DNA of 46,960 bases from Bacilli bacterium (GTDB taxonomy: Bacteria; Bacillota_I; Bacilli_A; RFN20; CAG-826), in contig JAFXWH010000034.1 of the NCBI GenBank assembly GCA_017542885.1, forward strand, positions 1 to 46,960, written 5' to 3'. Shown here in pieces: positions 7,031 to 44,558 of this stretch. The notes below the pieces were generated by a model that did not search any database, was not told the origin of the DNA, and worked only from the letters and a program-made list of their open reading frames with translations. The position numbers and the translations under genes were made by a program. Numbering within the stretch: the stretch's first letter is position 1; each line of letters begins with the position of its first letter.

Positions 7031-7032
7031 TG

Positions 7033-8040: not shown

Positions 8041-8090
8041 TAATTAATTTCCTCCTATTAGTCTTTCCTTACATCAGTTTCTGTAAGGGA

Positions 8091-8498: not shown

Positions 8499-8516
8499 TT
8501 ACGTGTCCTCCTTTCA

Positions 8517-8891: not shown

Positions 8892-8910
8892 ATTCTTTTA
8901 ATCTCCTTAA

Positions 8911-9024: not shown

Positions 9025-9071
9025 AAGTTTCTCCTAATGCTTTTTTTTGGTTTTTACTAGCTTCTGTTGAG

Positions 9072-9293: not shown

Positions 9294-9306
9294 ATGAAGA
9301 TACCTC

Positions 9307-10718: not shown

Positions 10719-10720
10719 CT

Positions 10721-13316: not shown

Positions 13317-13327
13317 AGTTTTTCTCC

Positions 13328-13684
13328 TTAGAACACGAGGCCGGCTTTACGTGCGGCTTCGGCGAGGGCGGCAATACGCCCATGATATTGGTAACCACCA
13401 CGGTCGAAGACGACCTTGGAGATGCCTTTATCTTTGGCTTTATTGGCGATAGCTTCACCAACTTTGGCAGCGGCTTCGCAGTTGGAGCCGTTAGCAAGCT
13501 TGAGTTGGACACTCGAAGTGCAAGCCAAGGTCATACCTTTGGTATCGTCGATGAGCTGGGCTTCGATGTGTTTGTTGGAACGGAAGACCACAAGACGTGG
13601 GCATTCCGCGGTGCCGGAGATCTTCGCTCTGACTCTGAGGTGACGACGGGCTCTGACCGCCGAACGGGACTCTTTCTGAATCAT
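13328..13684 (-). CDS. rplR: 50S ribosomal protein uL18
   Basis: 118-aa ORF with [30 protein letters not shown]. Confidence 0.96.
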
Positions 13685-13698
13685 ATGTTCTCTCCTCC

Positions 13699-14259
13699 TT
13701 ATTTCTTAGCACCGGTGGCAGCGGCACGCTTACCAACCTTCTTGATGAGGTGCTGGCCTTTGTAGTGGACGCCTTTCTGACCGTAGACGTCTGGACGGTG
13801 TGAATCATAGATGAGGGCAGCGGTCTGTCCAACATCGTGCTTGTCGCAGCCTTCAACGACGACGTGGGTGTCATCTGGGCAGGTGATCTTGGTGAACTTT
13901 CCGACTGGCTCGACACGGATTTCGTGAGAGTAGCCGAGGAACATGCAGACAGCGCCGTTCTTGACGGAGGCGCGGTAACCGGTTCCGTTGATTTCGAGTT
14001 CTTTCTTCCAGCCTTCGCTCACGCCCTTGGCGGCATTGTGAAGGTTAGCCGCGAAGGTACCGTGGTTTTTATGGGCTTGTCTGCTCTCGGTATCTTCGAG
14101 AACGCAGTGCAAGGCTCCGCCTTCCTCATGGACGCTGACGCCAGCTAAGAGCTTGACGCTTACTTCGCCCTTTGGACCTTTAACGGAGACAGCGCCATCT
14201 TTGATTTCATAGGTGACGCCCTCAGGAAGAGAGATGGGTTTTAATCCAATACGTGACAT
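13699..14259 (-). CDS. rplF: 50S ribosomal protein uL6
   Basis: 186-aa ORF starting [22 protein letters not shown]. Confidence 0.96.
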
Positions 14260-14282
14260 AAATGTACTTTCTTCTCCTCTAA

Positions 14283-14678
14283 TTACCAGACGTAGCAGAG
14301 AACTTCGCCGCCGACGTGCTCTTTGCGAGCTTCAGCGTCGGTGAGGATGCCTTTGCTGGTGCTGATGATGGCGATGCCAAGACCTTTGAGGACCTTTGGA
14401 AGCTTCTCGCATTCCATGGTCACGCGAAGACCTGGCTTACTAATCCTCTTGAGATTAGTGATAACGCGCTCGCCGTTCGCGCCATACTTAAGGGTTAAAG
14501 TGAGGGTTTTGCTCGCGCCTTCACCTTCGGCAACGAAGGAACTGATGTAACCTTCGGAGAGAAGGATGCGGGCGATTTCTCCCTTGACCTTGCTATAAGG
14601 CATGGAGACAGTCTCGTAACGAAGCGCGTTGGCGTTTCTGATGCGAGTGAGCATATCGGCAATTGGATCTGCAATCAT
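14283..14678 (-). CDS. rpsH: 30S ribosomal protein uS8
   Basis: 131-aa ORF starting [13 protein letters not shown] and ending GGEVLCYVW. Confidence 0.96.
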
Positions 14679-14697
14679 TTTTTATCTCCTTTCCTTA

Positions 14698-14883
14698 TTA
14701 CCATGAAGCCTTCTTCATGCCTGGGATCTCGCCTTTGTAGGCCATCTCCCTGAGGCAGATACGGCAAAGTCCGAATTTACGGAGGACACCGTGTGGGCGG
14801 CCGCAGCGCTGGCAACGGGTGTAGTTGCGGGTGCTGAACTTCTGTGGGCGGCTCGCTCTGACGATTAAACTAGTTTTGGCCAT
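14698..14883 (-). CDS. rpsN: 30S ribosomal protein uS14, zinc-binding type Z
   Basis: 61-aa ORF with [20 protein letters not shown] (C4 site). Confidence 0.95.
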
Positions 14884-14895
14884 GTTCGTTTCTCC

Positions 14896-15621
14896 TTAAC
14901 GTTTGAATGGCATGCCGAGGAGTTCAAGAAGCTTGAAGGCTTCGGCATCGCTCTGAGCGGTTGTGACAATGACGATGTCCATGCCACGGATCTTCGAGAT
15001 CTTATCGTAGTCGATCTCAGGGAAGATGAGCTGCTCACGAACGCCCAAGGTGTAGTTACCATGACCGTCGAAGGCGTTCTTGGAGACGCCACGGAAGTCA
15101 CGGACGCGTGGGAGAGCGATGGAGACGAGCTTATCGTAGAACTCGTACATTCTCTGACCACGAAGGGTAACTTTGGTGCCAATGGCCTGTCCTTCACGGA
15201 GTTTGAAGTTCGCGATGGACTTTCTGGCTTTGGTGATGACTGGCTTCTGGCCAGCGATAGCGGTCAATTCAGCGACGCTGTCTTCGAGGGCTTTGCCGTT
15301 TGAGGTGGCATCGCCGACGCCGATGTTGATGACGATCTTCTCGAAGCGTGGGGCTTGCATGATGGAGGTGTATCCGAACTCTTTGATGAGAGCTGGAACA
15401 ACTTCGTTCTTATATTTGGCAAGAACGCGGTTGAGCTCTTTTGCAGGAGCGGCTGGTTTCTTGCTGGCTTTTGGGGCCTCGGCCTTTGGGGCTTCCTCTT
15501 TTGGAGCTTCTGCTTTTGGAGCAGCGGCTTTAGGAGCGGCAGCCTTAGTGGCTTTAGGAGCGGAGGCTTTCTTAGCGGTAGTAGTTTTCTTAGCGGTAGC
15601 TTTCTTTTCTTCTTCTGCCAT
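14896..15621 (-). CDS. rplE: 50S ribosomal protein uL5 with an A/K/P-rich N-terminal tail of about 60 aa
   Basis: 241-aa ORF. The uL5 core begins near [27 protein letters not shown] lies 8 nt before the ATG at 15619-15621, and there is no internal in-frame ATG near the core. Confidence 0.93.
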
Positions 15622-15638
15622 TGTTATGTCCTCCTTCC

Positions 15639-15947
15639 TTACTTATCGAGGTTGGCTCCGCTCTTGGCGGTGCGAACCTTCTTGCCATTCTCGATGGTCA
15701 TATGGACACGAGTGGCTTTCTTTGTCTTTGGGTCAATGAGAGCGACCTTAGAGGCATCAAGCGGGACATAGATGTCGAGGATGGAGCCTTCTTGGACGTT
15801 CTGATTTGGCTTCTTGTGTTTCTTGTGGACGTTCACGCCTTCGACGACGACTTTGTTAAGCTTTGGGTAAACCTTCTGAACGGTGCCCTGCTTGCCTTTG
15901 TCATCACCGGAGAGAACGATGACTTTATCACCTTTTTTGATGTTCAT
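15639..15947 (-). CDS. rplX: 50S ribosomal protein uL24
   Basis: 102-aa ORF starting [23 protein letters not shown] (KOW motif). Confidence 0.96.
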
Positions 15948-15958
15948 ATCTCTTCTCC

Positions 15959-16327
15959 TTACAAGACCTCGCTGGCAAGGGAGATGATTTTCATGAATCC
16001 CTTTTCACGAAGCTCACGGGCGACCGGTCCGAAGACACGGGTGCCGAGTGGGTTATGATCATCATCGACGATGACCACGGCATTATCATCGAAGCCAATG
16101 GAGGAGCCATCTTTGCGGATGACCTGTCTCTTGGTGCGGACGATGACGCCTTTGACGACTTGACCCTTCTTGACCTTTCCATTTGGGGCAGCGTCCTTGA
16201 CGGCGCAGAGGACGATGTCACCGATGGAGGAGACCTTCATACGGGCTCCGCCGAGCTGACGGAAGATGCGGACGATGCGGGCACCGCTGTTATCGGCGAC
16301 CACGAGATTCGATTCATTCTGGACCAT
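15959..16327 (-). CDS. rplN: 50S ribosomal protein uL14
   Basis: 122-aa ORF starting [16 protein letters not shown] and ending SLASEVL. Confidence 0.97.
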
Positions 16328-16341
16328 TATCCGTTTCCTCC

Positions 16342-16695
16342 TTATTCAGCTTTCGCTTCTTCGGCTGGGGCAGCGACGATCTCATCGGAACCTTCCTTCT
16401 TCTCGAGGGCGGCTTCGATGGCTTCGACTGACTCACCGGCTAAAGCGGCTTTATCAATGGAGACGAGTCTCCATCTCTTAAGACGGGAGAGTGGGCGGCA
16501 AGCCATGATGGTGACTTCATCACCGAGCTTGGCCTGCTCGTTCTCATCGTGAGCGTAATACTTCTTGGAGTATCCGACTCTCTTCTTGTAAAGGGGATCA
16601 TTACGCTTGGTGCTGACGGTGACGATGATGGTTTTGGCCATCTTGGTTCCGGTCACAACCCCTTGAAGAGAAGTTCTTCTATTTCTTTCTTCCAT
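16342..16695 (-). CDS. rpsQ: 30S ribosomal protein uS17 with an acidic C-terminal tail
   Basis: 117-aa ORF with a uS17 core [16 protein letters not shown]...RWRLV. This is followed by an A/E-rich tail of about 33 aa ending AEEAKAE. Confidence 0.93.
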
Positions 16696-16712
16696 GGTAT
16701 TGGTCTCCTTTC

Positions 16713-16919
16713 TTATTTGGCCTCATGAAGGTGGAGGGCTCTCTCACGCTTCACGGTTTCGGCCTTAGCGATGTCCTTGCGGACGTAGTGTAATTCGTCT
16801 GGGTGCTCAATCTGTCCCACCGCTCTTTGGCGGGAGAGCTCGAAGAGCTTCTGACGAAGGCTGGCAAGCTTCTCGTCTAACTCTTTTGGAGATAACTCGC
16901 GGAATTCTTTGATATCCAT
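16713..16919 (-). CDS. rpmC: 50S ribosomal protein uL29
   Basis: 68-aa ORF in the conserved position, containing ELDEKLASLRQKLFELSRQRA. Confidence 0.94.
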   Translation of the reverse strand: MDIKEFRELSPKELDEKLASLRQKLFELSRQRAVGQIEHPDELHYVRKDIAKAETVKRERALHLHEAK

Positions 16920-16921
16920 GC

Positions 16922-17332
16922 TTATTCTCCTTTCTTAACGATCTTGCAGTTGATCGGAAGTTTGAAGGAAGCCTGACGAAGGGCCTTCATGGCGACTTCT
17001 TCGGAGACACCGCCGATCTCGAACATGACTCTGTTCTTCTTGACGACGGCGACCCATCCTTCTGGTGAACCTTTACCGGAACCCATACGGACTTCGGCTG
17101 GCTTCTTGGTGAAGGCGAGGTGAGGGAAGATTCTGATCCAAACCTTGCCAGAACGGTCGGTGTAACGGGATAAGACGATACGAGCGGCTTCGATCTGGTG
17201 GTCGGTGATGTAGGTTCCTTCCAACGCGGCTAAGCCATACTCACCGAAGGCGACCGTGTTGCCTTTGGTGGCGACACCCTCATAGCTGAGGCCATGTGGG
17301 CGGCGGTATTTAGTTCTACTTGGCTGGAGCAT
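16922..17332 (-). CDS. rplP: 50S ribosomal protein uL16
   Basis: The canonical N-terminus [13 protein letters not shown] starts at ATG 17330-17332, with GGAGG 6 nt upstream. The ORF-track extension to 17389 lies inside rpsC. The gene overlaps the rpsC 3' end by 17 nt. Confidence 0.93.
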
Positions 17333-18029
17333 TTCTGTTTCCTCCTTCTGCTTTTGGAGCTTTCTTCTCTTCAGCGGCGGCGATTCCAACCTTGTTGGTG
17401 CCTCTGCAGCACCAGACCTTCACGCCAATACGGCCATAGGCGGTAGCGGCGCTGACGGCGGCGAAGTCGATATCCGCACGGAGGGTTTCGAGTGGGACAA
17501 CGCCCTCTTTGTAACCTTCGCGACGAGCGATTTCAGCTCCACCAAGACGTCCCTGGCACTGGGTTCTGCAACCGGAAGCGCCAGCTTTTCTCATACGCTG
17601 GATGGCTTTCTTCTGGGTGCTACGGAAGGACTGACGGTTCTCGAGCTCAGAAGCGATCCATTTGCCGATGAGGGTAGCATCGACGTCTGGGTTTTTGACC
17701 TCAACGACCTCAAGATGCGGATTGCCGCTCTTGACGATCTTCTTAAGACCATCGTTGAGAAGTTTGGTGTTGGCACCATCCTGGCCCATGACGACGCCTG
17801 GACGGGCGACGTAGAGGGAGACGGTGACTTTGTATTCGGAATCGGTTTTGACACGCGCGATGTCGATATGGCTGAGAAGGGCTTCCTTGAGTTTTGGCTC
17901 TAAGAAGTTTCTGATGGCGATATCTTCACCAAGGAATGTTGCGTAGTCTTTCTTGGAAGCATACCAATTGGCTTCCCAGCCGCGGTTGATACCAATTCTA
18001 AGACCGACGGCGTTAACTTTCTGACCCAT
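17316..18029 (-). CDS. rpsC: 30S ribosomal protein uS3
   Basis: 237-aa ORF starting [24 protein letters not shown], with a short K/A/E-rich C-terminal tail. Confidence 0.96.
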
Positions 18030-18041
18030 TGATATTCCTCC

Positions 18042-18578
18042 TTACCTTTCTTTCACGGTGACTCTCATGAAGCTGGTGCGCTTGATGATTGGGGAGCTTG
18101 CGCCCTTACCGCGTGGTTCATAACGTTTCATTCTGACACCATCGCTGGCCTGGATCTCGGCGACATAGAGTTTGTCACCGGCCATGCCGAAGTTGTTGGT
18201 GGCATTGGCGGCTGCGCTCTTGATGAGCTTGGCGACTGGGTCGCTAGCAGCTTTGTTGACGTGGAAGAGGAGCTCAAGGGCATCGTTGACGTTCTTGCCA
18301 CGGACGAGATCCATAACGAGACGGACCTTACGTGGGGTGACGCGAACATCACGGGCGATGGCGTGGGCCTCAGTGACCTTAGCCTTGACTGGCTCGGCCT
18401 TGACCTCAGCCTTTTTCTTGGCTGGTTTCTTCTCTTCAGCCTTTGGAGCGGCCTCTGGAGCAGCTTCTTTCTTTGGGGCTGCGGCTTTCTTAGCAGGAGC
18501 CTTCTTGGCGGCTGGTTTCTTCTCAGCCTTGGCTTCTTCTTTGACTTCCGCAGTAGCTTTCTTTTTGGTTTCTGCCAT
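18042..18578 (-). CDS. rplV: 50S ribosomal protein uL22 with an A/K/P/E-rich N-terminal tail of about 65 aa
   Basis: 178-aa ORF. The core begins near EAHAIARDVRVTPRKVRLVMDLVRG. AAGGAG lies 9 nt before the ATG at 18576-18578. Confidence 0.93.
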   Translation of the reverse strand: MAETKKKATAEVKEEAKAEKKPAAKKAPAKKAAAPKKEAAPEAAPKAEEKKPAKKKAEVKAEPVKAKVTEAHAIARDVRVTPRKVRLVMDLVRGKNVNDALELLFHVNKAASDPVAKLIKSAAANATNNFGMAGDKLYVAEIQASDGVRMKRYEPRGKGASSPIIKRTSFMRVTVKER

Positions 18579-18591
18579 AGTTGCTTACTCC

Positions 18592-18879
18592 TTACTTACC
18601 GCTGGCCTGATCACCGGCGTTGTTGCCGTGATGGCCTTCGAATCTTCTAGTTGGGGCGAATTCGCCGAGCTTGTGACCGACCATATCCTCAGTGACGAAG
18701 ACGGTGATGTGCTCTTTGCCGTTATAGACGGCGAAGGTGTGCTCGACGAAGGCAGGATAGATGGTCGAACGTCTCGACCAGGTCTTGATGACTTCTTTTT
18801 TGCCGGCTTTATCGAGATCCTCGACCTTCTTGAGAAGGTAAGCATCTACGAACGGGCCTTTTTTGCTAGAACGTGACAT
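18592..18879 (-). CDS. rpsS: 30S ribosomal protein uS19
   Basis: 95-aa ORF starting [12 protein letters not shown], with [13 protein letters not shown]. Confidence 0.97.
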
Positions 18880-18897
18880 GTGTTCGATCTCCTTTCC

Positions 18898-19728
18898 TTA
18901 TCCATTGCGGCGTCTCATGATGAGGCGGCTGCTGTTCTTCTTGATGCGACGGGTCTTGACGCCCATAGCTTTCTTTCCCCATGGGGTGCGTGGGGCATCG
19001 CGTCCGACAGGACACTTACCTTCACCACCACCGTGAGGGTGGTCACATGGGTTCATGGCGGAACCACGGACGGTTGGGCGGATACCCATGTTGCGGTTGC
19101 GACCGGCCTTACCGATGTTGACAAGGTTCCAGTCGTCATTGCCAACGATGCCGATTGTAGCGCGGCAGACGCTTAAGACTTTTCTGACTTCACCAGAGGC
19201 AAGGCGAAGGATGGTGTATTTGCCATCGACGCCAAGGACCTGAGCCATGGAACCGGCAGCGCGGCACATCTGTCCGCCTTTGCCTGGCTTAAGCTCGATG
19301 TTGTGGATGAAGGTACCTTCTGGGATGTTCTTAAGAGCTAAGTTGTTGCCGTTTTTGATATCGGTGGCCTCGCCGCTGATGATCTTGTCACCGACGTTGA
19401 GGTCTTTTGGTCTAATGATGTAGCGCTTTTCGCCATCAGCATAGGTGATGAGGGCGAGGAAGGCGGTACGGTTTGGATCGTATTCGATCGCCGAGACAGT
19501 TCCTGGGATCTCGTCTTTGTTACGACGGAAATCGACGATTCTGTAACGGTTCTTGTTGCCACCGCCGTGGTGACGGCAGGTGATCACTCCTTGATTGTTT
19601 CTGCCACCAGTGTGTTTCTTGGTGAGAAGAAGGGATTTTTCAGGAGTGGCTTTGGTGATTTCCTCATACGAGAGGGTCTGCATGGCGCGACGGCTCTTGG
19701 TATAAGGCTTGTAAACTTTGATTGCCAT
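18898..19728 (-). CDS. rplB: 50S ribosomal protein uL2
   Basis: 276-aa ORF with [15 protein letters not shown] and HPHGGGEG. Confidence 0.97.
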
Positions 19729-19805
19729 TTCTTTTCTCCTATAGTGGTTTTCTTTTTAAGATTTTTTCTTATTTATATATAAGGATTAAGTCTTAAGGGT
19801 GTTTC

Positions 19806-20261
19806 CTACTCTTTGAAGAGGTCGACAGCCTCGCCTTCGGCGATGGTGACGATCGCTTTCTTGTAGCCGCCGATGAAGCCTTTGTAACGTCCGCCACGGG
19901 ATTTCTCCTTGGCGCTCACGTTGACGATCTTGATATCAACGACTTTGACCTGATAGAGCCTCTGGAAGCTGAGTTTGATCTCATCTTTGTTGCTCCAATC
20001 AGCAACCTTGACGGTCACTTTGTTCTCATTCTGGAGAAGAGCCATACTCTTTTCGGTGATGACTGGTTCCAAGATGACTTTGTAATCGTGCTCATTTGGA
20101 AGAGCGATAGGTTTCTTAGCAGCTTTTGGGGCTTCCTTCTTAGCCTCGGCTTTTGGGGCCTCAGCCTTTGGGGCGGCTTCCTTCTTAGGAGCAGCCTTCT
20201 TAGCAGGAGCTTTCTTGGTAGCCGTCTTCTTCTCGGCGGCGACTTTCTTTTCTTCGGCCAT
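19806..20261 (-). CDS. rplW: 50S ribosomal protein uL23 with an A/K/P-rich N-terminal tail of about 56 aa
   Basis: 151-aa ORF. The core begins at DYKVILEPVITEKSM. The ATG overlaps the rplD stop (TAATG), with GGAGG upstream. Confidence 0.93.
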   Translation of the reverse strand: MAEEKKVAAEKKTATKKAPAKKAAPKKEAAPKAEAPKAEAKKEAPKAAKKPIALPNEHDYKVILEPVITEKSMALLQNENKVTVKVADWSNKDEIKLSFQRLYQVKVVDIKIVNVSAKEKSRGGRYKGFIGGYKKAIVTIAEGEAVDLFKE

Positions 20262-20893
20262 TATTTAAGTCCTCCTTCGAGCGCTTTGACGTCATCCTCG
20301 CTGATGACCATGGTGTTGGCATTGAGGACGTCATAGACGCTGATGTTGTTAAGGGCGCGGATCTCGAGGGCATCGATGTTCGTAGCGCTCTTGACGAGTT
20401 TCTCATCGCTTCCGACCAAGAGAACTTTGCCTTCAGCCTTGATGGTCTTGAGGGACTCAGCCATGGCTTTGGTGCTGATCTTGGCGAGCTTGAGGCTGTC
20501 CACGATGAGGAGGCCTTTGGCGGCCTTCTGGGAGAGGACGGTCTTCATGGCAAGGGCGTGGGCCTTCTTGTTCTGAGAAACGGTGTAGTTCTGATTGCCA
20601 TCTGGTCCGAAGACGGTTCCACCGCCAACCCAGATTGGGGAGCGGCTGCTACCCGCACGGGCGCGTCCGGTACCTTTTTGACGATATGGCTTCTTGCCGC
20701 CACCGGAGACTTCGTGTCTCTTCTTGGTTTTGGCAGTGGCCTGACGGGCGTTGGCGCTCTGAGCGACGACGGCGTCATGGATGGCTTGTTCGTTTTTCTC
20801 GGTGATGCCGAATACCTCGGCGCTGAGTTTGACGTCTCCGACTTTTTCGCCGGCGAGATTAACGACTGGCAAACTGATTTTCTTTTCCGCCAT
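20261..20893 (-). CDS. rplD: 50S ribosomal protein uL4
   Basis: 210-aa ORF with GGGKKPYRQKGTGRARAGS. Confidence 0.96.
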   Translation of the reverse strand: MAEKKISLPVVNLAGEKVGDVKLSAEVFGITEKNEQAIHDAVVAQSANARQATAKTKKRHEVSGGGKKPYRQKGTGRARAGSSRSPIWVGGGTVFGPDGNQNYTVSQNKKAHALAMKTVLSQKAAKGLLIVDSLKLAKISTKAMAESLKTIKAEGKVLLVGSDEKLVKSATNIDALEIRALNNISVYDVLNANTMVISEDDVKALEGGLK

Positions 20894-20895
20894 TG

Positions 20896-21579
20896 TTATT
20901 CTCCTTTCTTCGTAAGATCAACAAGCGGCTTGACCTCTGGCTTTCCGAACTGCTTGAGGATAGCGCTTCTGATCATGACGAGACCTTTCTTGGCTCCTGG
21001 GATGCCACCCTTAACAAGGATGTAGTTCTTCTCGGCGCTCGTCTCGATGACGGTGACGTTGAGAAGGGTGGTCTGTTCATCACCCCAGTGTCCGCTCATT
21101 CTCTTGCCTGGAATGACGCGGTTGTTGTCACGACCGTTGTTGGCCAAGGAACCGATCTGACGGTGATAGCCAGAACCGTGACCCTTTGGACCGATGTGGG
21201 CGCCGTAGTGTTTGATGACGCCACTGTAACCGTGACCTTTAGAGGTGCCGATGATGTCAACGACTTCACCAGCCTGGAAGAGATCGGCGGTGAGGTTCTC
21301 ACCAACGTTCTTTCCGTAGATTTCCTCACCCTTTAATTCGAAGAGGTGAGCTTTGGCAGCGACGCCGGCTTTCTTGTAAACACCAAGCTCAGGTTTGTTG
21401 AGACGGTGCTCGGCGATGTCTTCGTAACCAACTTTGAGGGCTTCATAACCATCTTTCTCGATGGTCTTCTTTCCGACGATGACGTTTGGAAGGACTTCGA
21501 TGACGGTGACTGGATACATAGTTCCGTCAGCGGCGAAGACTTCAGTCATGCCCATTTTTCTTCCGATGATGGATTTCAT
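20896..21579 (-). CDS. rplC: 50S ribosomal protein uL3
   Basis: 227-aa ORF with MKSIIGRKMGMT and GTSKGHGYSG. Confidence 0.96.
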   Translation of the reverse strand: MKSIIGRKMGMTEVFAADGTMYPVTVIEVLPNVIVGKKTIEKDGYEALKVGYEDIAEHRLNKPELGVYKKAGVAAKAHLFELKGEEIYGKNVGENLTADLFQAGEVVDIIGTSKGHGYSGVIKHYGAHIGPKGHGSGYHRQIGSLANNGRDNNRVIPGKRMSGHWGDEQTTLLNVTVIETSAEKNYILVKGGIPGAKKGLVMIRSAILKQFGKPEVKPLVDLTKKGE

Positions 21580-21592
21580 TCTTCAGTCCTCC

Positions 21593-21907
21593 TTATTTCG
21601 CTGTGACATCGATGTCTACGCCGTTTGGAAGATCAAGCTTCCTGATGGCATCAATGGTCTCTTTGTTTGGACCGACGATGTCGATTAATCTCTTGTGAGT
21701 TCTGATTTCGAACTGCTCGCGGCTATCCTTGTACTTGAAGGTAGCACGGAGAATCGTGTAGACCTGCTTCTCGGTTGGGAGCGGGACAGGACCGACGATT
21801 TTCACATTGAAGTGATTCGCTATTTCTACGATCTTCTGGACGGCGACGTCGAGAATCTTGTGATCGTAAGCCTGCAAACGAATGCGCAGTACTTGCTGTT
21901 TCGCCAT
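21593..21907 (-). CDS. rpsJ: 30S ribosomal protein uS10
   Basis: 104-aa ORF with [14 protein letters not shown]. It is the first gene of the S10 operon and has an AAGGAGG SD. Confidence 0.97.
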
Positions 21908-22040
21908 GAATTTTCCTCCTTATTTCTTCAGGCTTGCTTTGCCAAGCTCCATGCGAGTTCCCTGACTAAGTCGAAGGCCTTAACAACGGCATTCGGCGTG
22001 TCAGCAACATCGCACTTCATCGCTGGCGTCAGCGTGTATG

Positions 22041-36101: not shown

Positions 36102-38204
36102 CTAGAGTGATTCGATTTCTTTAAGATAATCCTCACAAATTGCATCACTTGGCATCACAAGGTCACCTCTAGGTGAGAGGCCAACGGTGCCGATTTTTAT
36201 GCCATCAGGAGTGCAGTTTCTCTTGAATTGACTCTGGAAGAAACGCTTGAAGAAGGTTCCTAACCATTTCTTCAAAGTTTCGTTGTCGTACTTATAGTTG
36301 AAGGCTTGCTGCGCAAGGAAATAGAGCTTCTTAGGAGAGAATCCATAGCGGAGATAATGGAAGATGAAGAAATCCTGGAGTTCGTATGGCCCAACTTTAT
36401 CCTCGGACTTCTGGACGATTTCTCCTTTGCTGGAAGGTGGCAAGAGCTCTGGGCTGATTGGCGTGTCGATGATACCAAGCAAAGCAGCCTTAGCTTCTGG
36501 ATGCATGATCGCATATCCCTCAACAACATATCTAACTAAAGTCTTTGGAACGGAGATGTTGAGGTCATAGAAGGACATATGGTCACCATTATAGGTGCAC
36601 CACCCAAGAGCGGCTTCGCTTAAGTCGCCGGTGCCGACCATCAAAGCATCCTCATCGTTAGCAAGATCCATCAATACCTGGGTCCTCTCGCGAGCTTGGG
36701 CGTTCTCATAGGCGACATTGTGGTTTTGTTCATCGTGCCCAATGTCTTTGAAATGTAAACGCACTGACTCACCGATGTTTATTTCGCGGAAGGAGACGCC
36801 AAGCGATTCTGAAAGAAGGACTGCGTTGTTATGCGTTTTCTTGCTTGTTCCGAACGATGGAAGAGTGATGGCGATGATATCTTTCAGGTCATAACCAAGT
36901 TTTTTGAAGGCTTCTACGGAAACGAGAAGCGCAAGAGTTGAATCAAGACCGCCAGACAAACCTAAGACCACTTTCTTCTGATGGACGGTTTTGAGCCTTT
37001 TCACAAGCGCCATGCTTTGCATTGTGAGGATGAGATTGACTCTTTCAAGGTCAATTTCTTTGGTCTCCGGGATGAATGGGTTCTTTGAATAGTGACGGGT
37101 TAAGGCTTTAGGTGTTTCTAAAGGCATTGAGAAGAAGACCGTTTGATATTCGTTTTCGTATCTGGCTTTGAATGAATGGTTTTTGTTTCTTTCGGCTTCA
37201 AGAAGTTCAATATCAATCTCAGAAATTGCCTTTTCCATCTTGAATGGGGCAGCCTCGCAAAGAATCTTTCCGTTCTCTGCGATTATGTTGTGGCCGCCGA
37301 AGATCATGTCGGTGGTGCTTTCACCATCACCAGCGTTGGCAAGGATGTAAGCGGCCGTCATTTTGTCGGAAGCCGTCTTCAAAAGGCTCGTGGTGTATTC
37401 GGCCGAACCAATAAGCACAGGGGTCGCGCATAAATTAAGAATGACATTCGCGCCTGCCTGCGACGCTTTCGCGGAAGGGACTTCAATTGAAGAGATATCT
37501 TCAGATAGTTCAACGGCGATTCTGAGTTTTGGGTAATTGGAGTCAACAAAGATCAAATTGGTTCCAAACGGGATCTTTTCTCCTAGGAGGTTGATGTAAC
37601 CCTCTTTCGGCCCCTCAGAGAAGTATCGATTTTCGGATGGATAGGATTTTGGAACAATACCAAGAATCTCTCCGCCATAGTAAACGACACCGCAACTATA
37701 AAGTTTTCCATTGGTTTTGATTGGAGCGCCAACGGTGAATAGAAGGTCATTCTCTTTGGAGATTTCTTTAAGCTCAACAAGGGCTTTCTCAACCAATTCT
37801 TCGATTGTTTTACTGAAAATCAAATCGCCTAAAGTGGCAGATGTAAGACATAATTCTGGCAAAACAAGAATTCTGACACCTTCACTGCTTGCCTCGCAAA
37901 CAGCCTTGATTATTTCTTCTTTGTTATGGGTGATTCCAGCAATCTCTACATCGATCGATTGAGCTGCAACCTTAACATAGCCAAGCGGGTCACTAAGCTC
38001 ATTTTTGCCAGAAATCCTTGCAAATCTTGACTTTTCTTTGGCAGAACCCCCTTCGTTTAGGAGTTTTTGGTGAGCTTCATCAGAAAGGATAACGAAGTCT
38101 TTTTGGCCGTTTTTGGTGATAATGATCCTACCTTCGTTCTCCTCTAATTCCTTCCTTAACTTATCCGTATTTCGTAGCAATGTGATTGGTTTGATGTCGT
38201 TCAT
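36102..38204 (-). CDS. nadE: Glutamine-dependent NAD+ synthetase (CN-hydrolase + NAD-synthase domains) with an N-terminal Phd/YefM-like domain
   Basis: 700-aa ORF with a CN-hydrolase region (VLPELCLTS), a PP-loop GLSGGLDS and the NAD synthase C-domain. The first ~50 aa (ITLLRNTDKLRKELEENEGRIIITKNGQKDFVILSDEAHQKLL) fit the antitoxin fold pattern. An AGAGG SD precedes the ATG at 38202-38204. Confidence 0.88.
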   Translation of the reverse strand: MNDIKPITLLRNTDKLRKELEENEGRIIITKNGQKDFVILSDEAHQKLLNEGGSAKEKSRFARISGKNELSDPLGYVKVAAQSIDVEIAGITHNKEEIIKAVCEASSEGVRILVLPELCLTSATLGDLIFSKTIEELVEKALVELKEISKENDLLFTVGAPIKTNGKLYSCGVVYYGGEILGIVPKSYPSENRYFSEGPKEGYINLLGEKIPFGTNLIFVDSNYPKLRIAVELSEDISSIEVPSAKASQAGANVILNLCATPVLIGSAEYTTSLLKTASDKMTAAYILANAGDGESTTDMIFGGHNIIAENGKILCEAAPFKMEKAISEIDIELLEAERNKNHSFKARYENEYQTVFFSMPLETPKALTRHYSKNPFIPETKEIDLERVNLILTMQSMALVKRLKTVHQKKVVLGLSGGLDSTLALLVSVEAFKKLGYDLKDIIAITLPSFGTSKKTHNNAVLLSESLGVSFREINIGESVRLHFKDIGHDEQNHNVAYENAQARERTQVLMDLANDEDALMVGTGDLSEAALGWCTYNGDHMSFYDLNISVPKTLVRYVVEGYAIMHPEAKAALLGIIDTPISPELLPPSSKGEIVQKSEDKVGPYELQDFFIFHYLRYGFSPKKLYFLAQQAFNYKYDNETLKKWLGTFFKRFFQSQFKRNCTPDGIKIGTVGLSPRGDLVMPSDAICEDYLKEIESL

Positions 38205-39225: not shown

Positions 39226-39939
39226 TTATTCAGCCTTTTTGGCTTTTCCTTCGTTTTGTTTCTTCAACTCTCCGAGAATCTCTTTGAGAAGGTCGGCTTC
39301 GGTTGGCTCAGGGGTTCCTTCCTCTGGTGGGACAGGTCTCTCTTCTGGGTGCTTCTCGTAGTATTTCTCAAGGGCCTTAGCTTTGGCTTCGGCTTTCTTG
39401 GCTTCGATCTTGTTGGCGATCTTAACGATGATGAAGAGGGTTAAGCCAATGATGATGAAGGCGATAACGGCATTGATGAAGGTGCCCCAATCGATGATGG
39501 CAGACATCTTGTAGGTGAAGGTCGTGCCGTGCTGTTCATAAAGGCTAAGGAGTGAGTTCTTCCACTGGATGAAGGTGTCGCTTTCGACTTTCAAGTCGTT
39601 GACACCCTGCTGAGCGGCGAATTCGATAACACGATCGTTAACCTCGGCCATGGTGAAGGACTGAAGGTTGACGGTTTGGCCGTTCTGAAGGAATGCGGCA
39701 CCCTTTTGGGCATCAGTTAAGGCCGGAAGGACGGTAACGAGTCCTTTAAGACCTCCTGGAACACCCCAGGTCGCTAAGCTCATCAAGATGTTGACGAGTG
39801 AAGTGACAATGGCGTTGAACGCGCCGCCGATGACGACGCCGACGGCAAGCATGAAAGCGTTGCCTTTGTTGATGAATGCCTTAAATTCTGCAAAGAATCT
39901 CTTAAAAGCATTCGGCTTCTTTGGTTTATTGTCTCCCAT
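39226..39939 (-). CDS. mscL: Large-conductance mechanosensitive channel with an enlarged extracytoplasmic loop and extended C-terminus
   Basis: MscL N-terminus FKRFFAEFKAFINKGNAFMLAVGVVIGGAFNAIVTSLV. I place the start at ATG 39937-39939 (GGAGG 12 nt upstream). The ORF-track TTG at 39963 is an alternative. Confidence 0.85.
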   Translation of the reverse strand: MGDNKPKKPNAFKRFFAEFKAFINKGNAFMLAVGVVIGGAFNAIVTSLVNILMSLATWGVPGGLKGLVTVLPALTDAQKGAAFLQNGQTVNLQSFTMAEVNDRVIEFAAQQGVNDLKVESDTFIQWKNSLLSLYEQHGTTFTYKMSAIIDWGTFINAVIAFIIIGLTLFIIVKIANKIEAKKAEAKAKALEKYYEKHPEERPVPPEEGTPEPTEADLLKEILGELKKQNEGKAKKAE

Positions 39940-40023
39940 ATTTTTATTGTTCCTCCGAAACAATTGTTGATTTTATGATAGCGCGACATTCCAAAAAATG
40001 AATATGCCAAATATAAAAATATG

Positions 40024-40440: not shown

Positions 40441-40468
40441 TTGCAATTTATATGCCGATATTTATGAT
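40441..40468 (+). promoter_or_regulatory. Candidate nrdD promoter
   Basis: TTGCAA-N16-TATGAT. This predicts a structured leader of about 100 nt before the AAAGGAG SD and the ATG at 40579. Confidence 0.45.
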
Positions 40469-40578: not shown

Positions 40579-42969
40579 ATGTTGAAAGTTAGAAAAAGAG
40601 ATGAATCGATCGTTGAATTTGATTTATCGAGAATCGAAAAGGCTATTGAGAGAGCCTTTGTCGCAGAACACAAAGAAGCAGATAAGAACATCATTGAGCT
40701 TTTAGCTCTCCGTGTCACAGCGGAGTTCAATAAGAAGGTCGAAAATGGCATCGTGAACATCGAAGACATCCAGGACAGCGTTGAAATCGTCTTGATCCAG
40801 GCTGGCTATGTTGATGTCGCTCACAGCTACATGGACTACCGTAAGAAACATGCGGATATCCGTGAAATCAAGAAGACCGAGCTCAACTACGCCACCGTCG
40901 TCGATAACTATCTCAAGATCAGCGACTGGCGCGTTAAGGAGAACAGCACCGTCACCTATTCCGTCGGTGGTCTTATCCTTTCGAACAGCGGCGCCGTTAC
41001 CGCCAACTACTGGTTAAGCCAGGTCTATGACAAGGAAATCGGTGATGCCCACCGCAACGCCGACATCCACATCCATGACCTTTCCATGCTTACCGGTTAT
41101 TGCGCTGGTTGGTCCCTTAAGCAGCTTATTCAGCAGGGCTTAGGCGGCGTCCCAGGCAAAATCACCTCTACCCCAGCTGGCCATTTGAGCACTCTTTGCA
41201 ACCAGATGGTCAACTTCCTTGGCATTATGCAGAACGAATGGGCGGGAGCTCAGGCATTCAGTTCCTTCGATACTTATCTCGCCCCATTCGTTAAGGTCGA
41301 CAACCTTACCTACAAGCAGGTCAAGCAGTGCATCCAGTCCTTCATCTTCGGTGTCAACACCCCATCCCGTTGGGGAACTCAGGCTCCATTCACCAACATC
41401 ACCCTCGACTGGACCGTCCCAGAGGATCTTAAGAACCTCCCAGCCATCGTCGGTGGCAAAGAGATGGATTTCACCTATGGTGATTGCAAAGCCGAGATGG
41501 ATATGATCAACAAAGCCTTCATCGAAGTCATGATCGAAGGCGATGCCAACGGCCGTGGATTCCAGTATCCAATCCCAACCTATTCCATCACCAAAGAATT
41601 CGATTGGTCCGACACCGAGAACAACCGTCTCCTCTTCACAATGACCGCCAAGTACGGCACCCCATACTTCAGCAACTACATCAACAGCGATATGAAGCCA
41701 AGCGATGTCCGTTCTATGTGCTGCCGTCTCCGTCTTGACCTCCGTGAACTCAGAAAGAAATCCGGTGGTTACTTCGGAAGTGGCGAAAGCACCGGTTCCG
41801 TCGGCGTTGTTACCATCAACATGCCACGTATCGCCTATCTTGCCACCAACAAGGAAGACTTCTATGCCCGTCTTGATGCCATGATGGATATCGCTGCCCG
41901 CTCACTCAGCGTTAAGCGTAAGACCATCACCAAGCTCCTTGAAGCTGGCTTATATCCATACACCAAACATTACCTTGGCTCCTTCAAGAACCACTTCTCC
42001 ACCATCGGTCTTGTCGGTATGAATGAAGCTTGCCTCAATGCCCGTTGGGTCAGAAGCGACCTCACCACTCAGGCTGCTCAGGACTTCACCGTTGAGGTTC
42101 TCAACCACATGAGAGCCCGCCTCTCCGACTACCAGGAGAGATATGGCGACCTCTACAACCTCGAAGCCACCCCAGCCGAATCCACCGCTTTCCGTCTTGC
42201 TAAGCATGACCGTGAGAGATATCCAGACATCATCACTGCCGGCGGAAATGGTGAGACCCCTTACTACACCAACAGCTCACACTTACCAGTCGGTTACACC
42301 GACGATATCTTCGCCGCCCTCGACATCGAAGACAGATTCCAGACCCTTTACACCTCTGGCACCGTCTTCCACACCTTCTTGGGCCAGCGTCTTCCAAACT
42401 GGGAGAGCTGTATGAAGCTCGTCCGTAAGATCGCTGAGAACTACAAGCTTCCTTACTACACCATGTCTCCAACCTATTCGATCTGCCAGGATCACGGTTA
42501 TATCAATGGTGAAGTCCACACCTGCCCAATCTGTGGTAAAGAAGCTGAAGTCTGGTCCCGTATCACCGGTTACTACCGTCCAGTTAAGAACTGGAACGAT
42601 GGCAAAGCCCAGGAATACAAGGATCGTAAGACCTACATTCCAAACGAGAACAGCCGTCCACACGCTCACGACAGCGCTTGCGAGTGCCACGAGCACGAAG
42701 AGAAAGCTTCTGCTCCAAAAGTGACCAAAGTCATGCTCTTCACTTCTCCAACCTGCCCAAACTGCAAGATGGCGAAGATGATGCTTGATAAAGAAGGCAT
42801 CGAATACGAGCAGATTGACGCTGTTTCAAACAAAGAGACGACCACTGCATTCGGTATCACCAATGCTCCAACTCTCTTAGTTCCAAATGGTGAGGCCTAT
42901 GATGCGTACGAGAACGCTTCCGACATCAGAGGCTACATCCAGAAGGTGAAAGGCGGAAATGCTGCCTGA
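40579..42969 (+). CDS. nrdD: Anaerobic (class III) ribonucleoside-triphosphate reductase with an N-terminal ATP-cone and a fused C-terminal CPNC glutaredoxin/NrdH-like domain
   Basis: Start at ATG 40579 (SD AAAGGAG); the ORF-track GTG at 40555 is rejected. Features seen are the ATP-cone KVRKRDESIVEFDLSRIEKAI, HIHDLSMLTGYCAGWSL and SMCCRLRL. There is also a Zn site CQDH..CPICG and the glycyl-radical motif SRITGYYRPV. These are followed by about 105 extra aa ending in VMLFTSPTCPNCKMAK... Confidence 0.92.
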   Translation: MLKVRKRDESIVEFDLSRIEKAIERAFVAEHKEADKNIIELLALRVTAEFNKKVENGIVNIEDIQDSVEIVLIQAGYVDVAHSYMDYRKKHADIREIKKTELNYATVVDNYLKISDWRVKENSTVTYSVGGLILSNSGAVTANYWLSQVYDKEIGDAHRNADIHIHDLSMLTGYCAGWSLKQLIQQGLGGVPGKITSTPAGHLSTLCNQMVNFLGIMQNEWAGAQAFSSFDTYLAPFVKVDNLTYKQVKQCIQSFIFGVNTPSRWGTQAPFTNITLDWTVPEDLKNLPAIVGGKEMDFTYGDCKAEMDMINKAFIEVMIEGDANGRGFQYPIPTYSITKEFDWSDTENNRLLFTMTAKYGTPYFSNYINSDMKPSDVRSMCCRLRLDLRELRKKSGGYFGSGESTGSVGVVTINMPRIAYLATNKEDFYARLDAMMDIAARSLSVKRKTITKLLEAGLYPYTKHYLGSFKNHFSTIGLVGMNEACLNARWVRSDLTTQAAQDFTVEVLNHMRARLSDYQERYGDLYNLEATPAESTAFRLAKHDRERYPDIITAGGNGETPYYTNSSHLPVGYTDDIFAALDIEDRFQTLYTSGTVFHTFLGQRLPNWESCMKLVRKIAENYKLPYYTMSPTYSICQDHGYINGEVHTCPICGKEAEVWSRITGYYRPVKNWNDGKAQEYKDRKTYIPNENSRPHAHDSACECHEHEEKASAPKVTKVMLFTSPTCPNCKMAKMMLDKEGIEYEQIDAVSNKETTTAFGITNAPTLLVPNGEAYDAYENASDIRGYIQKVKGGNAA

Positions 42970-43861
42970 TATCCTAATCATAGGCGGAGGGGCTGCGGCA
43001 ATGACCGCGGCCCTTTATTCGCTTAGAGCCGGAAGAAGCGTCAAGCTCATCGAGAGGCAAGCGTTCGGCGGTCAAATCGCCGACTCTCCAAGAGTTGAGA
43101 ACTTCCCATCCATCAAAGAGATCTCCGGACTTGAATGGTCCAATAACCTTTTCGAGCAGATCACCGCTTTAGGTGCTGAGTTCGAAATGGACGAGGTCAA
43201 ATCCATCGAAAAGAAAGGCGACAACTTCGTTGCCCATTGCGAATATGGCGACTATGAAGGTAGAGCTGTCATCATCGCCAGCGGTGTCAAACACCGTCAC
43301 CTTGGCATCCCTGGAGAAAACCTCAAAGGCGTCTCCTACTGTGCAGTCTGTGATGGCGCTTTCTACACTGGCAAAGACACGATGGTCATCGGCGATGCCA
43401 ATAGCGCGCTCCAGTATGCTTTGCTTTTAGCAAAAACCTCCCGTCACGTTGACGTTGTCACCCTCTTCGACAAGTTCTTCGCCGACGATATCCTTGTGAC
43501 CGCTTTGAAGGCACTTCCAAACGTCTCGATCTACCACAACTACAATTCCGTCTCCTTCAATGGTACGGATAAGGTCGAAAGCGTCTCCTTCGAAGGCAGA
43601 TTAGACAAGAAACCAATGACGATTGAGATCAATGGTGTCTTCGTCGCCATCGGACAGGTTCCGGACAATGAGAGATTCTCCAACGTCGTTGATTTGGAGA
43701 AAGGCTTCATCGTTACCGATGAGAATATGGCCACCAAGACCGAAGGCATCTTTGCCGCCGGTGATTGCAGGGTCAAAAAAATAAGGCAGCTCACCACCGC
43801 TTGCAACGATGGAGCGATTGCTGCCTTAAATGCTAATACCTATTTAACGACTCATTCGTAA
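42959..43861 (+). CDS. Thioredoxin-reductase-like flavoprotein with a CxxC centre but a degenerate NAD(P)H-binding site
   Basis: 300-aa ORF with FAD motifs IIGGGAAAMTAA and FAAGDC and the redox centre CAVCDG. The second Rossmann motif reads VIGDANSA (canonical GGGNSA). The HRRxxxR position reads TLFDKFF. The start overlaps the nrdD 3' end by 11 nt. Confidence 0.8.
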   Translation: MLPDILIIGGGAAAMTAALYSLRAGRSVKLIERQAFGGQIADSPRVENFPSIKEISGLEWSNNLFEQITALGAEFEMDEVKSIEKKGDNFVAHCEYGDYEGRAVIIASGVKHRHLGIPGENLKGVSYCAVCDGAFYTGKDTMVIGDANSALQYALLLAKTSRHVDVVTLFDKFFADDILVTALKALPNVSIYHNYNSVSFNGTDKVESVSFEGRLDKKPMTIEINGVFVAIGQVPDNERFSNVVDLEKGFIVTDENMATKTEGIFAAGDCRVKKIRQLTTACNDGAIAALNANTYLTTHS

Positions 43862-44550
43862 CCACGAAGTTCGACGTGTTCGATATTCTTATCAAGAATG
43901 GCCTTCCAAATGAGGGCCTTTTCTTTTGGTACAGGATGGAAGCCGTGTTCGATGCAGCTATCCCTATCGACATACTGCTGAAGGAAGAGACGCTTGGCAC
44001 CGGCTAACCAAAGAGAGATCTTCTCAATGTCTTCGGTCTCATGGAATTCCTCAACGATGGTCGTTCTGAATTCGTAATCGACGAGATCGGTACTCATAAG
44101 ATATTCAATCGATTCTTCGATGTCTTTGATATCGACATTCTCGGTTCCGATCGTCTTGGCATACTTCTCTTTGCTGTTCTTGATGTCCATGGCGACATAG
44201 TCCACTAGACCCTGCTCAACCGCGAGCTTAAGAATCTCTGGACGAGAGCCGTTTGTATCAAGTTTGACCTTGTATCCTAATTCCTTGATTTCACCCAATT
44301 TCTCCAGCAAATCCGGCATTAAAGTGCATTCGCCGCCGGAAACGCATACGGCATCAAGGACGTTCTTCCTCTTCTCTAAGAAGGATTTGATGTCCTCCCA
44401 AGGGATGAAAGCAGGCTTCATGCCAGGAATGACCAAAGCCGCGTTATGGCAATACGGGCAACGCATGTTGCAGCCCGCGAAGAAAAGAGTGCAGGTGATG
44501 TTGTCGTCAAAATCTAGAAGCGAAAGCTTCTCCATTCCACTGAAATCCAT
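43852..44550 (-). CDS. nrdG: Anaerobic RNR activating enzyme (radical SAM)
   Basis: The CNMRCPYCHN CX3CX2C cluster lies near the N-terminus, with GGECTL also present. Start taken at ATG 44548-44550; a GTG at 44554-44556 (ORF track) is an alternative. Its 3' end overlaps the TrxR-like gene by 10 nt (convergent). Confidence 0.88.
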   Translation of the reverse strand: MDFSGMEKLSLLDFDDNITCTLFFAGCNMRCPYCHNAALVIPGMKPAFIPWEDIKSFLEKRKNVLDAVCVSGGECTLMPDLLEKLGEIKELGYKVKLDTNGSRPEILKLAVEQGLVDYVAMDIKNSKEKYAKTIGTENVDIKDIEESIEYLMSTDLVDYEFRTTIVEEFHETEDIEKISLWLAGAKRLFLQQYVDRDSCIEHGFHPVPKEKALIWKAILDKNIEHVELRGYE

Positions 44551-44558
44551 ATGCACAT

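Follow-up and report, generated by a model that had tools for sequence, protein, structure and literature searches.

A class III ribonucleotide reductase of gut and rumen Bacillota with a fused redoxin domain and a neighbouring thioredoxin-reductase-like flavoprotein

Introduction

Class III ribonucleotide reductases (RNRs) that use thioredoxin as reductant are exemplified by the NrdD2 proteins of Neisseria bacilliformis and T. maritima. According to published accounts, these enzymes combine a cysteine on strand βA, a loop with two consecutive cysteines and an active-site glutamate with the glycyl radical, and the disulfide generated during turnover is reduced by a thioredoxin-fold protein and thioredoxin reductase (TrxR; Wei et al., 2014), with redoxin and reductase being separate housekeeping proteins and NADPH the electron donor. 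Here we have analyzed a related system located on contig JAFXWH010000034.1 (GCA_017542885.1) of a Bacilli bacterium (GTDB lineage CAG-826), a stretch of 46,960 nucleotides that we refer to as the window and to which all coordinates apply. It consists of an nrdD gene extended by a C-terminal redoxin domain (nrdD-grx), an overlapping gene for a TrxR-like flavoprotein and a facing nrdG gene. Compared to N. bacilliformis, the redoxin is thus fused to the RNR and the reductase is operon-encoded and devoid of NADPH motifs.

The covalent attachment of a redoxin to an RNR subunit has a precedent in the class I protein NrdB of Facklamia ignava, where the fused glutaredoxin (Grx) is an efficient reductant of the enzyme (Rozman Grinberg et al., 2018; PMC6187632). 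Similar to the window, this Grx::ATP-cone::NrdB protein joins a CxxC-containing Grx to an RNR subunit with an ATP-cone alongside, whereas it differs as part of an aerobic class I system, by its N-terminal fusion to the radical-generating subunit, by its dependence on glutathione and by the lack of a linked reductase gene. Table S1 of the same study (RefSeq, March 2018) lists a single Glutaredoxin:NrdD protein from Lachnospiraceae bacterium TWA4 (WP_082039398.1), which shares with the window the fused Grx domain and a host from the Bacillota but belongs to the subclass NrdDd and has no ATP-cone, and it is listed without position, neighbourhood or function. Full-text literature searches returned no characterization of an NrdD-redoxin fusion or of an operon-linked reductase, and such a fusion is not mentioned in the reviews and later class III papers covered.

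The flavoprotein has counterparts in FFTR from Clostridia and cyanobacteria, TRi from D. vulgaris and TR from T. acidophilum, which have preserved the fold of low-molecular-mass TrxRs, their FAD motifs and the CxxC motif but lost the GGGxxA and HRRDxxR sequences. In TRi, latter are replaced by GEGxxA and TQGK, compared to GDANSA and TLFDKFF in the window.

The NrdD3 protein from Methanosarcina barkeri, in work attributed to Wei and colleagues from 2015, is reportedly reduced by an NrdH-like redoxin and a ferredoxin:disulfide reductase. It resembles our system in the combination of a dedicated Grx/NrdH-like redoxin with a pyridine-nucleotide-independent reductase, whereas this reductase is said to be an Fe-S protein of the ferredoxin:thioredoxin-reductase type instead of a flavoprotein and all polypeptides are said to be separate. 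Its finger loop contains the sequence QCCR and the protein has neither the methionine nor the glutamate that are both found in the window.

Results

A complete NrdD core of the MCCR class

The first gene of the system encodes a protein of 796 residues. Its start codon is preceded by the sequence AGGAG, located 8 nucleotides upstream, and its catalytic part contains the following features:

40579..42969, plus strand: nrdD-grx, class III RNR catalytic subunit with C-terminal redoxin, 796 residues; ATG start, TGA stop; NF006126, 1127.5 bits (cut-off 548)
40585..40854, plus strand: ATP-cone, allosteric on/off domain, residues 3-92; Pfam PF03477, 70.6 bits
40939..42636, plus strand: NRDD core including the glycyl-radical domain, residues 121-686; PF13597, 643.7 bits, model positions 1-562 of 562
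41101..41103, plus strand: Cys175 on strand βA, the redox cysteine of the bottom face; aligned with the cysteine of the 'PYC' sequence in T. maritima NrdD, present in 81 of 81 sequences
41716..41727, plus strand: finger loop M380-C381-C382-R383 (MCCR); direct reading, classes according to Burnim et al., 2022
42163..42165, plus strand: Glu529, equivalent to E495 of T. maritima and E438 of N. bacilliformis; phmmer alignment of NLEATPAE with NIEQVPAE, present in 81 of 81 sequences
42484..42534, plus strand: Zn-ribbon ligands C636, H639, C649 and C652; direct reading, invariant among close relatives
42568..42570, plus strand: Gly664, glycyl radical site in SRITGYYRPV; direct reading

With a full NRDD domain, an RxxGY motif following the Zn-ribbon and an nrdG gene in proximity, the protein has the hallmarks of a class III RNR and is predicted to be active as such. 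It also scores above the threshold of the family TIGR02487 (534 bits, cut-off 326). Since the complete NRDD model covers residues 121-686, the canonical enzyme is expected to end around residue 686, which is also where the match to NF006126 terminates, and in alignments the ends of the structurally defined NrdDs of P. copri and T. maritima fall within a few residues of positions 686-690.

Four classes of finger loops were distinguished by Burnim et al., 2022. Among those, MGCR defines the formate type, the combination of SCCR with a glutamate defines enzymes that use thioredoxin only, as found in N. bacilliformis and T. maritima, and QCCR is characteristic of NrdD3, which has neither the methionine nor the glutamate. 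MCCR is the commonest of the double-cysteine motifs, with the methionine being retained in 83% of double-cysteine sequences, and its members appear potentially competent for either reductant (Burnim et al., 2022). The window protein belongs to this fourth class and carries the glutamate in addition. It thus shows two of the three residue features of NrdD2, the double cysteine and the glutamate, but not the methionine-free SCCR loop of N. bacilliformis and T. maritima. It differs from NrdD1, defined by a single cysteine in the MGCR motif and the absence of the glutamate, by its MCCR motif and Glu529, and from NrdD3 (QCCR/A, no methionine, no glutamate) by the presence of Met380 and Glu529. The glutamate at this position was proposed in the literature as the proton source of formate-independent NrdDs and is replaced by a leucine in the aligned formate-type NrdD of P. 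copri. All 81 sequences share residues C381, C382 and R383, and Met380 is found in 80 of them, with isoleucine as the single exception. As Met380 is retained to this degree, the enzyme may also be able to use formate. The class III RNRs characterized in the literature covered contain SCCR, MGCR or QCCR motifs and none of them an MCCR motif.

The fused domain has a thioredoxin fold

Beyond the core, the protein continues for 110 residues (687-796) that comprise a disordered linker and a thioredoxin-fold domain with a CPNC motif:

42637..42726, plus strand: His/Cys-rich linker, residues 687-716; predicted disordered, unconserved
42727..42951, plus strand: Glutaredoxin/NrdH-like thioredoxin-fold domain, residues 717-791, order β-α-β-α-β-β-α; Pfam, AlphaFold2 (AF2), Foldseek
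42754..42765, plus strand: active-site C726-P-N-C729 at the N-terminus of helix α1; direct reading, AF2 models

The tail is recognized above threshold by the Pfam models Glutaredoxin (PF00462; residues 718-754, 33.7 bits, cut-off 22.9, although covering profile positions 1-37 of 60 only) and Thioredoxin (PF00085; residues 705-782, 26.0 bits, cut-off 23.5). An AF2 model of the tail by itself has a predicted local distance difference test score (pLDDT) of 87.5 and places the CPNC motif at the head of α1, and Foldseek searches with this model retrieve thioredoxins, glutaredoxins, NrdH redoxins and PDI domains with a probability of 1.00 and TM scores of 0.6-0.7. The full-length AF2 model was calculated from a shallow alignment of sequences that are 80-100% identical and, with a mean pLDDT of 60 in the core, was used neither for docking nor for fold searches; in this model the redoxin domain has pLDDT values of 74-88, whereas values are below 50 across residues 657-711, which include the linker. 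The CxxC motif is retained in 81 of 81 sequences, mostly as CPNC and in few cases as CPRC or CPKC, and the alignment of relatives also shows conservation of the cis-proline in the sequence APT and of the C-terminal helix. The combination of a variable, disordered linker with a conserved domain is the pattern expected for a tethered functional module.

The domain remains far below the curated cut-offs of NrdH (TIGR02194, 25.0 against 85.75 bits), YruB (TIGR02196, 30.6 against 88.55) and the MJ0307-type thioredoxin (TIGR00411, 28.7 against 92.75), and also below that of Grx3, and it therefore forms a distinct subfamily of small redoxins. In these comparisons, only the first approximately 38 residues are aligned for NrdH and YruB and approximately 52 for MJ0307. 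Glutaredoxins that depend on glutathione carry a signature consisting of a TVP cis-proline loop and a GG-x-D-D motif. At the equivalent positions, the tail contains the sequences N-A-P-T and Y-E-N-A-S-D, with the cis-proline preserved and no GG motif, which makes a reduction of the domain by a reductase more likely than by glutathione.

The linker extends over 17-69 residues in bacterial relatives. It is often rich in histidine and cysteine, as illustrated by the sequence ACECHEHEE in the window; 54 of 81 sequences contain a cysteine in this region, 35 a CxC-like motif and 27 no cysteine. This richness may reflect metal binding or an additional thiol relay. A role of the linker CxC as shuttle, in analogy to the C-terminal cysteine pair of class I and II RNRs, was considered and, as a general feature, rejected in view of the mentioned counts of CxC-like motifs and cysteine-free linkers.

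These results bear on an original prediction for this stretch, which had proposed the fusion of a redoxin to NrdD. The NrdD motifs quoted there, including HIHDL..GYC175AG, are all present, and the glycine codon is exactly at its proposed position (42568-42570). The sequence indeed continues past the glycyl-radical domain, and the thioredoxin fold of this extension is borne out by profiles and models alike. The assignment of the tail as resembling NrdH/YruB-type glutaredoxins holds with respect to its fold and CPNC motif but not at the level of curated family scores. The Zn site was correctly recognized, although its ligands are Cys-His-Cys-Cys instead of four cysteines. This Cys-x2-His...Cys-x2-Cys arrangement distinguishes the Zn-ribbon of the window from the NrdDs of phage T4 and P. 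copri, which both contain four cysteines. The redoxin-type residues of the core, for which an inspection had been suggested, were located in the reference alignment as the cysteine pair and Glu529, and the full NrdD1 residue set is absent. Of the three outcomes named in the prediction as contradicting it, none has been encountered.

The fusion is conserved in bacteria

A tblastn scan with one genome per species identified at least 599 relatives, of which the best 80, covering the query from residue 1 to approximately 790, were subjected to an analysis of open reading frames (ORFs). In all 80 loci, core and tail reside in a single ORF. When clustered at 90% identity, the entries of a protein database that are 79-100% identical to the window NrdD form at least 120 clusters. 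Among the clusters listed, all but one measure 787-812 residues and all but one combine ATP-cone, NRDD and Glutaredoxin domains. The clusters originate from NCBI, ENA, JGI and Logan assemblies. The relatives from the genome scan comprise metagenome-assembled genomes (MAGs) labelled as Bacilli, Christensenellaceae, Oscillospiraceae, Lachnospiraceae, Ruminococcaceae and Erysipelotrichaceae and a cultured representative in Ruminococcus turbiniformis CLA-AA-H200. Samples were obtained from gut and rumen, and the closest among the matches listed, with 98% identity, is found in a Bacilli MAG from water-buffalo rumen.

A search of 50%-identity representatives with the tail alone retrieved mostly proteins of 70-250 residues and is uninformative on the spread of the fusion, which is hidden in this library since the fused NrdDs collapse into few clusters. 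A word-index search with the tail alone gave 14 matches. These did not reveal a genuinely split module: the seemingly stand-alone 'glutaredoxins' are fragments of frameshifted contigs, with one more located at the end of a contig. In two such loci (L082 and L083, encoding P0274 and P0123), database entries of 78-100 residues annotated as 'glutaredoxin' or 'ribonucleoside-triphosphate reductase' are pieces of the fused gene. Entries of this kind from frameshift-rich assemblies could mislead a census of domain architectures.

The neighbouring flavoprotein has lost its NAD(P)H motifs

The second gene starts within nrdD, with its ATG creating an overlap of 11 nucleotides with the nrdD stop, and it is followed by nrdG, which is transcribed in the opposite direction and shares a 3' overlap of 10 nucleotides with the reductase gene:

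42959..43861, plus strand: TrxR-like flavoprotein of low molecular mass, 300 residues; ORF map, profile matches
43340..43351, plus strand: redox-active C128-A-V-C131 of the reductase; direct reading
43391..43486, plus strand: degenerate pyridine-nucleotide site, G145-DANSA in place of GGGxxA and V164-DVVTLFDKFFAD in place of VxxxHRRDxxRA; TrxR structure alignments
43852..44556, minus strand: nrdG, radical-SAM activase, 234 residues; TIGR02495 (NrdG2), 197.5 bits (cut-off 131), with the radical-SAM motif CNMRCPYC at 44449-44472

The reductase contains the FAD motifs GGGAAA and GDCR and scores 286.5 bits with TIGR01292 (thioredoxin-disulfide reductase), for which the cut-off is 343.45. According to literature criteria, NADPH-dependent thioredoxin reductases (NTRs) are recognized by GxGxxA and HRRxxxR motifs, whose absence is taken as a mark of independence from NAD(P)H, as in FFTR and TRi. 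In alignments with TrxR structures, the window protein shows neither of them, with changes from GGGNSA to GDANSA and from HRRDxxR to TLFDKFF, so that the sequences GDANSALQ and VDVVTLFDKFFAD stand against GGGxxA(xE) and (Vxxx)HRRDxxR. By these criteria the protein is a non-NTR, and since both motifs are lost, the module of the window is probably not driven by NADPH. At the same time it does not cluster with characterized FFTRs, as reflected in E-values of 1e-23 to 2e-25 for 6gna and 6gnc and 2e-31 for 5j60; values for T. acidophilum TR and for entry 5nii, the enzyme of which is unconfirmed, are 9e-43 and 7e-22, respectively. Because its replacement motifs are unlike those of TRi and because its nearest relatives are NADPH-dependent TrxRs, the loss of NAD(P)H binding looks like an independent event.

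In related loci, a TrxR-like gene is found within 150 nucleotides downstream of nrdD-grx in 63 of the 80 genomes, a number that rises to 70 if distances of up to 1.2 kb are allowed. Grouping of the 70 NrdD-linked reductases by their motifs yields three types:

Type A: GD(A/G)NxA and (T/A)LFDxFF; 33 of 70, window included
Type B: GGGNSA and QNL/QDL; 21 of 70
Type C: GGGxxA and HRR, canonical; 15 of 70

The presence of these types suggests that the electron donor is specific to the lineage, which would imply that the same fused RNR receives its electrons from different sources in different organisms. For the window, a ferredoxin or flavodoxin is a natural guess, and NADH may be used instead. The motif type also tracks the position of nrdG. 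Convergent nrdG genes located after the reductase occur in 21 loci, and in 20 of these, including the window, the reductase belongs to type A, whereas an upstream, co-directional nrdG is found in 38 loci and is usual with types B and C. The approximately 1-kb gaps that separate nrdD and reductase in three loci (L047, L052 and L062) contain unrelated insertions instead of a ferredoxin or flavodoxin.

The original prediction had envisaged a TrxR homologue as dedicated partner in a self-contained, autonomous unit. The overlaps between the three genes are as described there, and the partnership is reinforced by the proximity of the reductase gene in 63 of 80 genomes. The homology to TrxR is evident in the FAD motifs and the CAVC sequence, but the score below the family cut-off and the missing NADPH motifs set the protein apart. 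Since the reductase, by published criteria, is not a standard NADPH-TrxR, the unit is probably not autonomous, and the suggested parallel to the NADPH-driven system of N. bacilliformis probably does not extend to the window, where the GGGxxA and HRR sequences are lost.

Phages carry the fusion without the reductase

A scan of IMG/VR revealed 48 viral loci (L084-L131), 27 of which contain the fused tail. Many of them lack an ATP-cone, and their linker comprises just about 8 residues (such as in L098 and L102). We have inspected the surroundings of three phage nrdD-grx genes:

L098:3974-5992
L102:4034-6052
L093:3848-6088

Their neighbours encode DNA polymerase, exonuclease, a phrog_4291 polymerase, a head maturation protease, PhoH, a RuvC-like protein, dCMP deaminase and a small NrdG. 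In none of the 48 viral loci is a TrxR-like gene found within 4 kb. The location of the fusion beside genes of nucleotide metabolism without an own reductase fits the behaviour of an adaptor that would plug into a reductase of the host. In a neighbour-joining tree of the core, calculated without bootstrap, all fused sequences are part of one large clade, with several non-fused viral NrdDs placed outside and few non-fused phage genes nested inside, which is consistent with a single gain of the fusion followed by secondary losses.

In three other viral loci (L127:3956-7078, L128:2861-7012 and L129:3950-7051), the NrdD ORFs exceed 1000 residues and similarity to the window NrdD stops exactly at residue 381, which looks like the insertion of an intein at the catalytic cysteine of the finger loop.

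Surroundings of the module

Scans for regulatory elements provided two candidates:

40441..40468, plus strand: sigma-70-like promoter match TTGCAA-16-TATGAT, approximately 110 nucleotides 5' of nrdD; consensus scan, weak evidence as the region contains fewer such sites than shuffled controls
43900..43928, plus strand: terminator-like hairpin with T-run, 40 nucleotides 3' of the reductase stop and within the 3' end of nrdG; consensus scan alone

The hairpin could mark the end of an nrdD-reductase transcript. No Rfam family was found across the whole window, and a search for palindromes resembling NrdR boxes, with up to three mismatches allowed, was negative. The module is flanked by housekeeping genes coding for NadE, a RimK-like ATP-grasp protein, MscL, RarA/MgsA and YhhN. 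None of the flanking ORFs of at least 80 residues was recognized as coding for a ferredoxin or flavodoxin.

Two of the neighbours contain additional stretches of sequence. The glutamine-dependent NAD synthetase (36102-38204, minus strand, 700 residues, CN_hydrolase and NAD_synthase domains) has an N-terminal extension of approximately 90 residues without assignment, the first 50 or so of which appear antitoxin-like by eye, without support from Pfam. The MscL homologue (39226-39963, minus strand, 245 residues) exceeds the usual length by approximately 100 residues, with the Pfam match divided into two stretches and a C-terminal tail rich in lysine, glutamate and proline; MscL genes are also located directly 5' of nrdD in the fragmented loci L082 and L083. 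Finally, a region at about 6000-22000 has a G+C content of 0.50-0.54, compared to 0.42-0.45 elsewhere, and contains dense small ORFs on the minus strand, which might, as a guess, constitute an operon for ribosomal or other highly expressed proteins.

Discussion

In this study, we have described a locus that is a real and conserved variant of redoxin-dependent class III RNRs, with a function that we infer as follows. NrdG would place the radical on G664, from where it would be transferred to a cysteine of the finger loop, either C381 or C382. Reduction of the ribonucleotide would then leave a disulfide between C175 and the neighbouring finger-loop cysteine, with E529 serving as proton source. 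The CPNC-containing domain, attached by its flexible linker directly after the glycyl-radical domain, would re-reduce this disulfide in each turnover and would in turn be recycled by the co-transcribed and translationally coupled TrxR-like flavoprotein via its FAD and the CAVC motif. The flavoprotein itself would most likely be fed by a low-potential carrier, a ferredoxin or flavodoxin as required by NrdG anyway, and not by NADPH. The tethered redoxin may thus be a functional analogue of the mobile tail carrying a cysteine pair in class I and II RNRs. This assignment is supported by the core, which contains those residues that are associated with turnover by thioredoxin in N. bacilliformis NrdD, namely C175, C381-C382 and E529, and we consider a redoxin-dependent class III RNR with tethered reductant and dedicated flavoprotein as the probable, if not yet firm, interpretation of the locus.

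Several observations weigh against this interpretation. Met380, the equivalent of which is needed for the thiosulfuranyl chemistry of the formate-type NrdD from E. coli, is kept in nearly all relatives, and the active site of NrdD is buried, so the redoxin would have to find a way to reach it. Six of the 80 genomes lack an adjacent reductase although their sequence extends for 4 kb beyond nrdD. The window reductase is closer to NADPH-TrxRs (E-value 3e-58) than to the FFTRs of known structure, the linked reductases fall into three motif types that include 15 with a canonical HRR sequence, and a ferredoxin or flavodoxin as donor finds no counterpart among the neighbouring genes. Moreover, every member of the group is known from its sequence alone.

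The strongest competing explanation assigns turnover to formate, for which Met380 and C175 would have the same role as their equivalents in E. coli NrdD, and leaves to redoxin and reductase the task of keeping the cysteines of NrdD, either those of the Zn-ribbon or the active-site pair, reduced for activation by NrdG or for recovery from transient oxidation. Such maintenance would be plausible for hosts in gut and rumen with their occasional exposure to O2 and is in line with the retained methionine. However, formate-type enzymes lack the double cysteine and the glutamate that are invariant here, and a maintenance role would hardly need a covalent 1:1 tether maintained in bacteria and phages alike. 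We thus view this explanation as rather unlikely.

Somewhat further removed is the idea of a dual-reductant enzyme, in which an NrdD with MCCR motif and glutamate can switch between formate and the tethered redoxin according to metabolic conditions. It draws on the proposal that MCCR proteins appear to have the components for either reductant (Burnim et al., 2022) and on the conservation of both residue sets in relatives, with the single exception at Met380. Conversely, no NrdD is known to use both reductants and genes for formate supply were not seen at the locus, and we hold this scenario for distinctly improbable. The formate independence proposed in the original prediction may nevertheless not hold, in light of the preserved Met380 and the potential of MCCR proteins to employ either reductant.

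One could also regard the Grx-like domain and the TrxR-like protein as partners in general defence, directed at thiols or peroxides, that are merely linked to nrdD and do not contribute to ribonucleotide reduction, modelled on the TrxR-like/Grx-like system that reportedly exists in Clostridium pasteurianum. The YruB-type glutaredoxin-like family is among the best small-redoxin matches of the tail in NCBIfam, and non-NTR reductases of Clostridia were linked to stress response in the literature. Still, the window did not reveal a gene for a peroxiredoxin or another client, and NrdD itself is suggested as the client by its covalent fusion with the redoxin, seen in all 80 genomes and in phage modules for nucleotide metabolism, which renders such a role very improbable. 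An artefact of assembly or a frameshift that has joined nrdD to a separate redoxin gene, as the short 'glutaredoxin' entries with 57-77% identity to the tail might suggest, can be dismissed, as the contigs of these entries also have nrdD and reductase broken up and are thus error-ridden, whereas independent projects have recovered the single ORF repeatedly, in 80 genomes of different species, 27 viral contigs and more than 120 clusters of proteins.

Returning to the redoxin-dependent enzyme with tethered reductant, a wider proposal can be put forward tentatively, as a possibility that we consider less probable than not. Gut and rumen Bacilli and Clostridia of the Christensenellaceae type may operate a pyridine-nucleotide-independent relay, from a low-potential carrier (ferredoxin or flavodoxin) via a new lineage of non-NTR flavoproteins and the tethered redoxin to the disulfide of NrdD, in which case MCCR enzymes with glutamate would be reduced by disulfide exchange and not by formate, and phages would tap into the reductases of their hosts.

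The original prediction knew of no characterized NrdD-redoxin fusion, and in the searched literature the fusion remains biochemically uncharacterized, yet it was noted once before, in 2018, and is widespread, extending to phages. Its conservation in 80 of 80 species of gut and rumen Bacillota and in phages provides strong genomic evidence for a redoxin route. It makes tractable two questions, the reductant of MCCR-type class III RNRs and the access of a redoxin to the active site of NrdD, as the natural 1:1 fusion offers a stoichiometrically defined construct for biochemistry and cryo-electron microscopy, and the linkers of about 8 residues in phages constrain the position at which the redoxin can dock. 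The reductase adds a further TrxR-like lineage that has lost its NAD(P)H motifs and, in contrast to most enzymes of this kind, its physiological client is obvious. Finally, members of the family are currently annotated as 'ribonucleoside triphosphate reductase' or with the addition '(formate)', and latter may be wrong.

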